DNA from: Dictyostelium discoideum
Taxonomy: Eukaryota
DNA: 64,000 nucleotides
Direction: 5' to 3'
NCBI GenBank assembly: GCA_000004695.1
Contig: CM000151.3
Coordinates: forward strand, 320,001 to 384,000
Part shown: one piece after another, positions 27,820 to 31,449 of the stretch
Numbering within the stretch: the stretch's first letter is position 1
Layout: every line of letters starts with the position of its first letter
Made by a program: the position numbers and the translations under genes
The notes under the pieces: generated by a model
What the model was told of the DNA's origin: nothing
The model's database searches: none
What the model saw: only the letters and a program-made list of their open reading frames with translations

Positions 27820-28022
27820 TTTAAATTTTTAAATTGGTTTTTAACAATCATTCAAAAGTATCACAATTACCCGTTCCTTGCAGCACCAATGATTGTATTA
27901 AAATTTTGGTTATCACACTTTTGGATCGTTTTATATTAAATTTTAAATTACATATATTTGAATACATTCATCAAAATTTCGATTTTATTTTAAAGAAAAA
28001 CTCAGAAGGTGGAATATTAACT
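27820..28022 (+). pseudogene. Family-2 C-terminal fragment, interrupted by the terminal-inverted-repeat element; it continues at 30200-30300
   Basis: ...FKFLNWFLTIIQKYHN...LQILEYIHQNFDFILKKNSEGGILT | element | IKELKYFLFSSLQRDKVKISKFLFQFISISE. The two halves are collinear with 40540-40830 of the intact copy. Confidence 0.6.
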
Positions 28023-30199
28023 GTCCCATGCCAAAATTAATATGGCTGCTGAAATTAATATGGTAATTTTGGCATGGGACTTATGTCTGCTAGAATTACC
28101 ATATTAATTTCAGCAGCCATATTAATTTTGGCATGGGCCGACCAACTATTTTAGGCTGAAATTAATATGGCTGCCGAAATTAATATGGTAATTTTGGGCA
28201 TAGAAAAATAAAAAAAAAAACTCAAAGTCATTTAATTAATAATAATCATCTCAAATATAAAAGAATTAAAAATAATAATAAAAAAAAACTCATGGGATTA
28301 ATTATAGTAACAATACTGACGACAAGAATAATTATAAAATAAAAAAAAAAAAAAAAATCTTTTTTTATCTTTTTATTTTTATTTCTTATTTATTTTCATG
28401 TGTTCAAAAAAAGTGGTGGTTTAAAACAATTTATTTAATTTTAAACTGTATGATTGTTTAAACAATTTCGAAATAAGTTTCTTTAAAGAAATTCTGTATT
28501 TCTTTTTTTTATTTTATTTTATTTCATTTCATTCTATTTTTTTTTTTTTATTTTTTTTATTTTTTTATTTTTTTATTTTTTTTTTGTATATTTAAGTTAT
28601 TTATTATTATTATTATTATTATTATTATTATTATTATTATTATTATTATTATTATTATTATTATTATTATTATTATTATTATTATTATTATTATTATTAT
28701 TATTATTATTATTATTATTATTATTATTATTATTATTATTATTATTATTATTTAATTAACCGAAGGGATATCTTTTACTTTTTTTTTATATATAATTGTT
28801 CGAAACTTTAAAAAAATAAAATAAAAAAAAAAAATTAAAAAAAAAAATTTAAAAAAAAAAAATATAAAAAAAAAAATATAAAAAAAAAAAATTAAAAAGT
28901 ATTTTTTTTTTTATTTTTTTATTTTTTTAAAGTTTTCGTTCCAAAAAATGGTCTTCAGTAAAGACAATAAATTAAATAATCAACTTTCTGCAACAGAAAT
29001 CGAAAAAATAATAAAAATAAATTAAAAAAACTCTTGGAAAAATATGACGAAGATGTAAAATTTAAAATAGATTATAAATTTCATAATACCAAATTGAGTG
29101 GACAAAATATAAATTGGAAAAACATTTTGGATAAACAGTATGTTGTTGAGAATGTAGAATATGGTACGGCAACTATTAAAGAAGTGTTTTATATTGATAA
29201 AGATAAAAAGAAAAAATTGGTACCCAAAAGACTTAGTGAAGATTATAGAGAAGGTTAGGCTTAACAAAGATGAAGATGGTGTCTCTCATATGATTAATCA
29301 AAACCAGTGTCAACAGCACATCAGTAATCATTATAAAGCAGATAATCATTCTGCTATTATAAAAGCTTATTACAATACTGAGCCTACTTCTAGAATAGAG
29401 GCCACCAAACTCTCAAGTAAAAATAAATTGCAAAGGGATATCGAAATAACCAAAAGAAAATCAACAGATGACCTAGTTGAAAAAGCAATCGAGCACTCTA
29501 CCACCGAAGTTAGATCAACACATGAAGCTGCAACAACTTCCAATAATGGTGGAATCACAACTCAATCAAACAAAAACAAAACGGGTAAAAAAAGAGCTAA
29601 TCAATTACAATCTGATGCTGATTTTTTCACCAAAAGATTTTCAAACGAAACTTCATCTGTTAGTAACAAAAGAGTAAGTAGAAGAGTAGATAATTAAAAA
29701 AAAAAAATTAAAAAAAAAAAATTATTTTAATTTTTTTTTTTTTTTTTATTTTATTTTTTTTTTTTATTTTTAATTTTTTTTTTTGTTAGCCTTGGAAATA
29801 AATGAATAATAAAAAAATATATATCAACTAAAAAAAAAAGAAATGAAAATAAATTATAAAATTAATAATAAAAATAAAAAGATAAAAATAAATAAAAGAT
29901 AAAATAAAATAATATGAAAATTTTTTTTTTTTTTTTTTTATTATTATAATTATTATAATAAAAATAATAATAATATTAATTTTAGTACTAAAATTTTGTT
30001 TATATTTGAGATGATTATTAATTAAATGACTTTGACTTTTTTTTTTTCTATGCCAAAATTACCATATTAATTTTGGCAGCTATGTACATGCTGAAATTAA
30101 TATGGCTGCTGAAATTAATAAGGTAATTTTGGCAGACCTAAGTCCCATGCCAAAATTAATATGGCTGCTGAAATTAATATGGTAATTTTGGCATGGGAC
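28023..30199 (+). mobile_element. Unclassified about 2.2-kb DNA element with long composite terminal inverted repeats (starts GTCCCATGCC..., ends ...GGCATGGGAC). Flanked by a 7-bp ATTAACT duplication (8 bp with one mismatch), inserted into a family-2 gene fragment.
   Basis: The terminal about 150-180 bp consist of nested and inverted copies of ccaaaattaatatggctgctgaaattaatatggtaattttggcatgggac. Host sequence ...ggaatATTAACT | element | aATTAACTattaaagaa restores the family-2 reading frame once the element is removed. Contains an (ATT)n tract at 28603-28752. Confidence 0.65.
29034..29697 (+). CDS. ORF carried by the terminal-inverted-repeat element: about 255-aa basic, Ser/Thr/Asn-rich protein of unknown function. 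In this copy it is split by one frameshift near 29250.
   Basis: MEKYDEDVKFKIDYKFHNTKLSGQNINWKNILDKQYVVENVEYGTATIKEVFYIDKDKKKKLVPK..KDLVKIIEKVRLNKDEDGVSHMINQNQCQQHISNHYKADNHSAIIKAYYNTEPTSRIEATKLSSKNKLQRDIEITKRK...KRVSRRVDN. The same protein is encoded in the second copy (52982-53739, minus strand) with its frameshift at a different position. Confidence 0.5.
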
Positions 30200-31449
30200 A
30201 ATTAACTATTAAAGAATTAAAATATTTTTTATTTTCATCACTTCAAAGGGATAAAGTTAAAATTTCTAAATTCCTTTTTCAATTTATTTCTATTTCCGAA
30301 ATTTGAAGCACATAAAAAATCACATAAAAATAATAAATATAATTAATAATAAAAAAAAAAAATAAAAAAAAAAAATAAAAAAAAAAAATATTGAAAATTA
30401 AAAATTTTGGTTGGGAATTAAAAAAATAAAAAATGCAGCAAAAAGCATTATTAAAATTAAATCAAACAAAAATAAATTAAATTATATTAAATTAAATCAA
30501 ATAAAATTTTTATTTTTTTTTTTATTTTTATTTTTTTTCGTTTTTATTTTTATTTTTTTTTTTTTTACTTTTATTTTTTTATTTTCATTGCCCTGCAAAT
30601 AAATCCTCACTCTTTCTTCGAATTTTATTTTAATTTGACCGTTTTATTAGCGAGAGAATTAAAAAAAAAAAAAAAAAAATTAAAAAAAATAAATAGAATT
30701 GACCTTGTAACGCGATATATACTATTATAATTATTGTAGTAGAAGTTGGTGCTACTGTATAACTACCTAAACTTTCATTTTTACAATTATTATCATTACC
30801 AAAATATCTGAATTTGATTTTAGAAAATTTAACCTCTACAAATACTACTTCCATCAATTGAATTTAAGCCTGATAAACTTGTGAGATTTATTGTTGATGC
30901 TGTTGTTGTTGTTGTTGTTGTTGTTGTTGTTGTTGTTGTTGTTGTTGTTGTTGTTGTTGTTGTTGTTGTTGTTGAAGTAGACTAATAATTTGGTGGATGT
31001 GGTTTTTGAGTCTAATTAATTTTGATGTATTGTTACTAACTTTCATGTCAACCTTTGTTCTACCTCTAGCTAATTGATAGTAATTTTATGAATAATATTG
31101 TTAATTAATGTATCTGTAGTGCACCTAAGAAAAGCTGGATAATCTATTGTTGGTTGTGATGATAATTGTTACTAATTTAATTGAATCTCTATTTATTGTT
31201 TTCATTGTGATTATTGATATAATTTTTTTTTTTTTTTGAATTTAGTAATTGTGACAAAAAAAAAAAATAAAAAATAAAAAATGTTGAAACAAGGCTGTGG
31301 AAACCAAGAAAAAAAAAAATAAATAAAATAAAATTAAAAAAAAAAATGGTGAAATTTTAATAAAAAAAAAAAAAAAAATTTTATTTTTAAGAGCAAAGGG
31401 ATTTACTTTTTTTATTTAATTTTATTTTATTTTATTATTTTTAAAATTT

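Follow-up and report, generated by a model that had tools for sequence, protein, structure and literature searches.

A Dictyostelium discoideum transposon as a probable thug-S copy and probable in-frame deletion derivative of a 3.0-kb integrase-type parent

We analysed a window of 64,000 nucleotides of Dictyostelium discoideum DNA (assembly GCA_000004695.1, contig CM000151.3, positions 320,001 to 384,000 of the forward strand; coordinates below count from its first letter), in which a sequence-only reading had reported an unclassified 2.2-kb mobile element near 28-30 kb with a second, partial copy further downstream. Judged by its sequence, the 2.2-kb element (copy A) is a copy of the catalogued D. 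discoideum DNA transposon thug-S, and the best explanation overall, to which we give a probability of about 0.92, is that it is a non-autonomous form that arose from a 3.0-kb parent with a retroviral-integrase-type (rve) transposase by way of an in-frame deletion. The window has a G+C content of about 20% and contains extended A/T tracts as well as (TTA)n arrays. Two of its open reading frames (ORFs) match D. discoideum AX4 proteins of chromosome 2 exactly: that of copy A corresponds to DDB_G0271172, listed as 'hypothetical protein' in NCBI, and that of the second copy (copy B) to DDB_G0271154, whose entry DDB_G0271154_TE is listed as 'thugS element' (PMC12405889). With that entry, and with the match of the terminal palindrome to the Rfam family mir-7131 described below, the element no longer stands as unclassified. 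The features are collected in Table 1.

To define the boundaries, we relied on uninterrupted relatives of the gene into which copy A is inserted. When the segment 28022-30200 was excised in silico, the joined flanks were continuous with three paralogues elsewhere in the window (Table 1), in agreement with the earlier proposal that the insertion splits a coding fragment of its family 2. Each of these uninterrupted genes carries a single ATTAA(C/A) at the empty site and the interrupted copy reads ATTAAC-TG...CA-ATTAAC at the insertion point, indicating that the element ends one base outside the limits first proposed on either side (TG...CA at 28022 and 30200 instead of 28023 and 30199, so that the approximate place was right and the exact ends were not) and that the target-site duplication (TSD) is a perfect 6-mer instead of a 7-8-bp repeat with a mismatch. 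The empty sites and the terminal inverted repeats (TIRs) together confirm a bounded mobile element at this position. The TIRs are imperfect and about 240-380 bp long, with 28022-28399 pairing with 29882-30200 at 88% identity over ungapped columns and a 58-bp block that is identical at both ends (28023-28080 and 30142-30199); the window has six copies of their 40-nt terminal unit, compared with none in 100 shuffles. The left end folds into a near-perfect hairpin of about 115 nt (free energy -84.3 kcal/mol, z -14.8) and the right end into two hairpins (free energy -73.1, z -10.7). The host gene family comprises at least four tandemly dispersed paralogues that are 75-79% identical at the nucleotide level.

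The TSD was surveyed across six independent complete elements, namely thug-S in the window and at loci L007, L008 and L009, the parent at locus L006 and a sister element at locus L004. All six share the same 11-bp termini and are flanked by perfect, differing 6-bp TSDs (ATTAAC, GTTGCA, TATAAC, TATAGT, GGTGTG and TATGGA), and as a control the Tdd-4 element in the window gave its published 5-bp TSD, TTATT. The hAT-like mobilisation suggested earlier finds no support in these data: hAT elements have an 8-bp TSD, short TIRs and a transposase with hAT dimerisation and BED domains, whereas the TSD is 6 bp throughout and the partner enzyme is integrase-like, of the rve type.

This partner enzyme is encoded at L006 in the strain assembly GCA_054883475.1, where positions 7981-10986 hold a complete element of 3,006 bp with the ends TGTCCCATGCC...GGCATGGGACA, flanked on each side by GGTGTG and containing an intact, intronless ORF of 591 aa. 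Copy A is collinear with it at 98.2-98.4% identity and differs by a 211-bp (TTA)n expansion, deletions of 8 bp and 14 bp, and a single gap of 1,014 bp, that is 338 codons, which is in frame and removes parent residues 161-498. The deletion lies at a CAA(G) microhomology, found in the parent between CTCTCAAAGG and GACAAGCAAAAAT, and its junction is identical at L003, L007, L008 and L009. A reading of TCAA|GTAAAA at the point of divergence as a splice donor was rejected, as the parent has no intron at that point and what is seen is the deletion junction. L003 is the orthologous insertion at the same locus in GCA_054883475.1; at 1,980 versus 2,179 bp it is 199 bp shorter overall, so the (TTA)n array is a length polymorphism that evolves fast inside the transposon.

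The 591-aa protein matches the Pfam family rve (E 1.8e-16), and its residues 173-342 align to the catalytic cores of foamy-virus and other retroviral integrases (E 7.6e-8). The deletion of residues 161-498 took with it all of the D,D35E positions, D186, D245 and E281; by eye, the deleted part looked as if it also held an SH3- or chromo-like region after the core. The C-terminal tail is conserved in the full-length homologues P0006-P0008 and is therefore genuine coding sequence. Homology searches with the repaired ORF of copy A recovered Dictyostelium proteins that share 72-99% identity with it at their N-termini and have an rve integrase core further on; the ORF, earlier considered private to the element, thus has clear homologues. 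A match of the ORF to a known family had been named beforehand as an outcome that would count against the first interpretation, and such a match was found.

The ORF of copy A starts at ATG 28948, in an AAAAATG context, and is in frame once one A, which copy B keeps, is restored in an A-run; the TTG at 29034 that had been proposed as its start is inapplicable because the source is eukaryotic. Two frameshifts interrupt this ORF (-1 in the A-run at about 29002 and -8 at 29224), and copy B has three, so that the single frameshift per copy reported earlier undercounts both. The repaired protein is basic (pI 9.6) and has 252 aa, not about 255, made up of residues 1-160 and 499-591 of the rve/DDE transposase; it thus represents no new transposase family and no accessory DNA-binding protein either. 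The non-autonomous alternative that the sequence-only reading had also offered is correct. Scanned alone against Pfam, the repaired 252-aa ORF gave no significant match (sub-threshold noise to DUF424, Phage_Y01A and Vma12), a result that favours an autonomous element with a previously undescribed, non-DDE transposase. That explanation has to accommodate an ORF that shares 98% identity with both ends of an rve/DDE transposase, a deleted catalytic triad and identical frameshifts in all recently amplified copies, and we consider it highly improbable.

The shared lesions also bear on the history of the derivative. The four complete thug-S copies are mutually 99.2-99.9% identical (the window copy is 99.2-99.3% identical to those at L007-L009) and all show the junction, the loss of 8 bp and the A7-to-A6 frameshift; the AX4 gene models P0010-P0013 likewise have the same out-of-frame start, MVRQLLKK, and the 8-bp lesion is mirrored in five further gene models of the cluster (P0010-P0013). 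Lesions common to such near-identical copies indicate that the ORF was already broken in the master copy before amplification. The suggestion that the consensus ORF is intact and was probably functional until recently does not hold, since both frameshifts of copy A recur in three other independent thug-S insertions. Copy B is on the minus strand near the place first given for it (52569 to about 54000) and is about 96% identical to copy A. It is broken at both ends, without an intact terminus from which a TSD could be read. It has the same deletion junction, lacks the two frameshifts of copy A and carries three of its own (-1, -7 and -2); having the junction without these two lesions, and being about 4% diverged, it represents an older branch. 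The two relics noted earlier near 13.9 kb and 26.0 kb do exist (Table 1).

We considered whether the truncated protein, an N-terminal domain joined to a C-terminal tail, might act as a regulator, either a KP-like inhibitor of transposition or a DNA-binding protein. In favour of this, the deletion preserves the reading frame exactly, and no part of the protein family is better conserved than the N-terminal block that was retained; thug-S transcripts have been detected (PMC12405889), a 178-aa ORF with 156 in-frame residues persists in several copies, and the dictyBase description of the Tdd-5 gene reads 'putative transposase/transposition inhibitor'. Against this, every complete young copy has the same two frameshifts, with residues 1 to about 95 lost from any product, and copy B has three further lesions; the 99% identity between copies precludes a test for selection, and an AlphaFold2 model built on a 6-sequence alignment was uninformative (mean pLDDT, the predicted local distance difference test score, 36.5). 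A regulatory role for the product is in our view unlikely.

The model that we favour for thug-S is that of a deletion derivative, and its steps run in the order parent, in-frame deletion, frameshifts and amplification. A 3.0-kb autonomous element with a 591-aa rve transposase of the D,D35E type would be the ancestor; a single 1,014-bp in-frame deletion at short microhomology would have eliminated the whole catalytic core and left the composite TIRs of about 300 bp, the N-terminal 160 aa and the C-terminal 93 aa; and one sublineage would then have acquired the -1 and -8 frameshifts and amplified to several near-identical copies, including the one at 28022-30200. With the frameshifts preceding amplification, the ORF of thug-S itself would have had no part in mobility. 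Instead, the parent transposase may act in trans through the shared TIRs by cut and paste, with integrase-like cleavage at the TG...CA ends and insertion with a 6-bp stagger, and, if the literature on thug-S small RNAs applies, the terminal palindromes may be transcribed and diced into mir-7131 small RNAs.

The terminal hairpin of copy A matches the mir-7131 precursor model almost base for base, at 98.9 and 95.8 bits versus a gathering score of 74. The match recurs at L006-L010; all other thug-S copies and the parent have it, and an Rfam scan of the sister family at L004 gave no mir-7131 match. Multicopy microRNA (miRNA) loci have been described as part of thug-S (PMC6161686; PMC4894637), from which we infer that mir-7131 is the thug-S miRNA. 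Strongly structured ends that match an annotated miRNA family could be taken for satellite or hairpin DNA, such as a miRNA gene cluster, flanking an unrelated gene with no transposon involved. We find this hardly credible, given that four unrelated loci carry the whole 2-kb unit, each with a perfect 6-bp TSD of its own, that paralogous empty sites exist and that the hairpin is also the terminus of a transposase-encoding parent.

As to the names, copy A shows no detectable difference from thug-S: its identity is about 96% with copy B and 99% with the other copies, the multicopy miRNA hairpin ascribed to thug-S in the literature is present in it, and the ORFs of copies A and B fall in one 90% cluster with DDB_G0279895/0282907, DDB_G0282703, DDB_G0271194 and DDB_G0270824. 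The parent at L006 is most probably Tdd-5, because the neighbour-numbered DDB_G0290953 (P0003) and its orthologue P0015 span the whole L006 element and because the 18-kb L006 locus has no other integrase ORF. It shares its termini, TIRs and flanking non-coding regions with the window element (98.4% identical) and has an rve DDE core, TG...CA ends, TIRs of about 300 bp and a low copy number, and its core shows 27.6% identity to the Tdd-4 core, in keeping with the description of Tdd-5 as 'related to Tdd-4'; the window element differs in lacking the 1,014 bp in which the catalytic core is encoded. Long copies were seen at two loci (L001 and L006), and dictyBase lists two occurrences.

Several points weigh against this interpretation. 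The thug-S label rests on gene identifiers and the Tdd-5 label on the adjacent gene numbering of DDB_G0290953 and DDB_G0290955. The parent measures 3,006 bp and has a 6-bp TSD, compared with the 3,783 bp and 5 bp published for Tdd-5 (PMC2836005). The difference in length would fit if the reference carries a 761-bp nested insert (3,006 + 761 + 3 = 3,770), such as the one that, together with a Tdd-4 insertion, interrupts the second long copy at L001. A full-text literature search returned no explicit link between mir-7131 and thug-S, the supplements searched containing neither thug nor mir-7131 sequences.

The parent can be compared with the Ginger2/Tdd group of integrase-like DNA transposons, which includes Tdd-5 (Bao et al. 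2010, PMC2836005) and is defined by TIRs of about 45-300 bp, TGTNR termini, a TSD of 4 bp (5 bp in TDD-4 and TDD-5) and an N-terminal H2C2 zinc finger (PMC2836005). The L006 parent has the integrase-like rve core, which the window element has lost, and the TIR length fits. The terminus TGTCC agrees with TGT, with C and not a purine at position 5, and the TSD is 6 bp in all of the thug-S, parent and sister elements surveyed instead of 4-5 bp. A pattern search for the canonical HHCC (H2C2) motif, H-x(2-7)-H-x(20-35)-C-x2-C, found none in the 591-aa protein, which has only one Cys before the core. Tdd-4 (Wells 1999) resembles the thug-S lineage in its integrase-type DDE transposase, TG...CA ends and long TIRs, but is a separate sequence family: its termini are TGTTG, its gene has introns, its protein has an HHCC motif and an SPXX tail, and its TSD is 5 bp. 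For the copy of Tdd-4 in the window, the exon blocks match the HHCC/DDE/SPXX part of DDB_G0270824 at 84-100% identity.

In architecture, thug-S shows the features of a non-autonomous deletion derivative: the TIRs and TSD length of its parent, collinearity except for an internal deletion, and no catalytic domain. Internally deleted non-autonomous derivatives of DNA transposons are familiar from maize Ds versus Ac and from Drosophila KP versus P. As in these pairs, a single deletion, here at microhomology, has left both TIRs in place and taken the catalytic region, and the derivative outnumbers its autonomous parent; as in KP, the deletion is in frame. It differs from KP in that the residual ORF was frameshifted before amplification, which makes a KP-like repressor role unlikely for the present copies. 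Glockner and colleagues are said to have presented thug in 2001 as a new DNA transposon class, and a later review is said to have described the thug class as having no similarity to known transposases. We offer tentatively, as a possibility that we do not favour over its alternatives, that the thug class is a non-autonomous deletion form of the Tdd-5 integrase-type lineage, characterised by a 6-bp TSD and no canonical HHCC motif, with mir-7131 as its own terminal hairpin; the presence of this hairpin in the autonomous parent too would then suggest a built-in small-RNA self-silencing loop.

Other features of these loci are recorded here. The sister transposon family, represented in strain GCA_054859355.1 by L004 5026-8822 and L002 from 5408 (proteins P0006-P0008), is 3,797 bp long, with a 6-bp TSD (TATGGA), the same 11-bp termini and diverged TIRs; its transposase is about 71% identical to that of the thug-S parent, and the strain has multiple copies of it (5 cluster members). 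Homology searches turned up no AX4 protein of this type. An assignment of the 3,797-bp L004/L002 family to Tdd-4 was rejected, the real Tdd-4, with HHCC and SPXX motifs, being represented by DDB_G0270824 and by the element in the window. Some gene models look like artefacts: DDB_G0290953 (P0003) and P0015 (L006 8001-10469) take their ATG from inside the TIR (MAAEINMVILAWD) and 'splice' over the transposase gene to the C-terminal tail, and DDB_G0270824 (P0013) is chimeric, joining a thug-S ORF to a Tdd-4 transposase. The 761-bp insert of L001 belongs to a multicopy family resembling miniature inverted-repeat transposable elements (L001 7149-7909; L006 5953-6713, 13675-14434 and 15580-16330), possibly DDT-S or similar, with TIRs CACAGCAAAGAAAAA.../...TTTTTCTTCGCTGTG, an apparent 3-bp TSD (GTC) and an interior of many AAGGTAATTTTTAAGGT repeats and tRNA-like fragments. 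It splits the long transposase ORF of L001 between PPEDV and AFLEF, and a search for it in the window found it absent. A tRNA-Val(AAC) gene (27021-27095, minus strand) lies about 930 bp upstream of the thug-S insertion and has the thug-S subterminal relic at 26020-26161 on its other side; tRNA genes are targets of Dictyostelium retroelements.

Table 1. Features of the thug-S insertion and related sequences in the window.
Feature	Position	Strand	Remarks
Left TSD copy, ATTAAC	28016..28021		Paralogue comparison and TSD calling across loci
Complete thug-S (copy A), 2,179 bp, non-autonomous deletion derivative	28022..30200	+	Ends TGTCCCATGCC...GGCATGGGACA
Left composite TIR	28022..28399	+	Inverted and direct copies of a ~40-nt unit; well-conserved part to ~28262
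Terminal hairpin, Rfam RF03716 (mir-7131 precursor), full length	28039..28125	+ (matches both strands)	
(TTA)50.7 microsatellite inside copy A	28601..28752		+211 bp versus parent copy
Remnant transposase ORF, 252 aa once repaired	28948..29697	+	Parent residues 1-160 and 499-591
AX4 gene model DDB_G0271172, 178 aa	29161..29697	+	Exact match P0001 / XP_645764.1; first 22 aa out of frame
Deletion junction CTCTCAAG/TAAAAAT (slash marks the join)	29413..29418	+	At CAA(G) microhomology
Right composite TIR	29882..30200	-	
Right TSD copy, ATTAAC	30201..30206		
Copy B, older thug-S fragment, broken at both ends	52577..53985 (about)	-	~96% identical to copy A
Copy B ORF	53067..53492	-	Exactly DDB_G0271154 / XP_645777.1; dictyBase 'thugS element'
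Degenerate relic, terminal-repeat units and subterminal region	about 13925..14200		
Relic of subterminal TIR region	26020..26161	+	83-87% identical to element positions 238-374
Host-family paralogues	27600-28021 and 30201-30620 (thug-S-disrupted copy); 34324-34730; 40514-40918; 50769-51184		
Full-length Tdd-4, 3,844 bp	46284-50127	ORF -	Ends TGTTGTAGGG...CCCTACAACA; ~243-bp TIRs; TSD TTATT

We conclude that the element family is already known and that the 'hypothetical protein' DDB_G0271172 is a transposon remnant. What had looked like a lead to a new transposase family falls away, and the importance of the result is mainly one of curation. The incremental points are the probable derivation of thug-S from Tdd-5, the 6-bp TSD and the identity of mir-7131 with the terminal hairpin of both derivative and parent, although the relationship between thug-S and Tdd-5 may already have been stated in the original 2001 description. 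Tracing thug-S explicitly to an element with an intact 591-aa integrase-type transposase provides a testable autonomous partner, and for this lineage two small discrepancies with the literature emerge, in the TSD length and in the lack of an HHCC motif. Finally, tying a curated miRNA family to a transposon terminus may be of interest for the origin of miRNAs from TIR hairpins in Amoebozoa.

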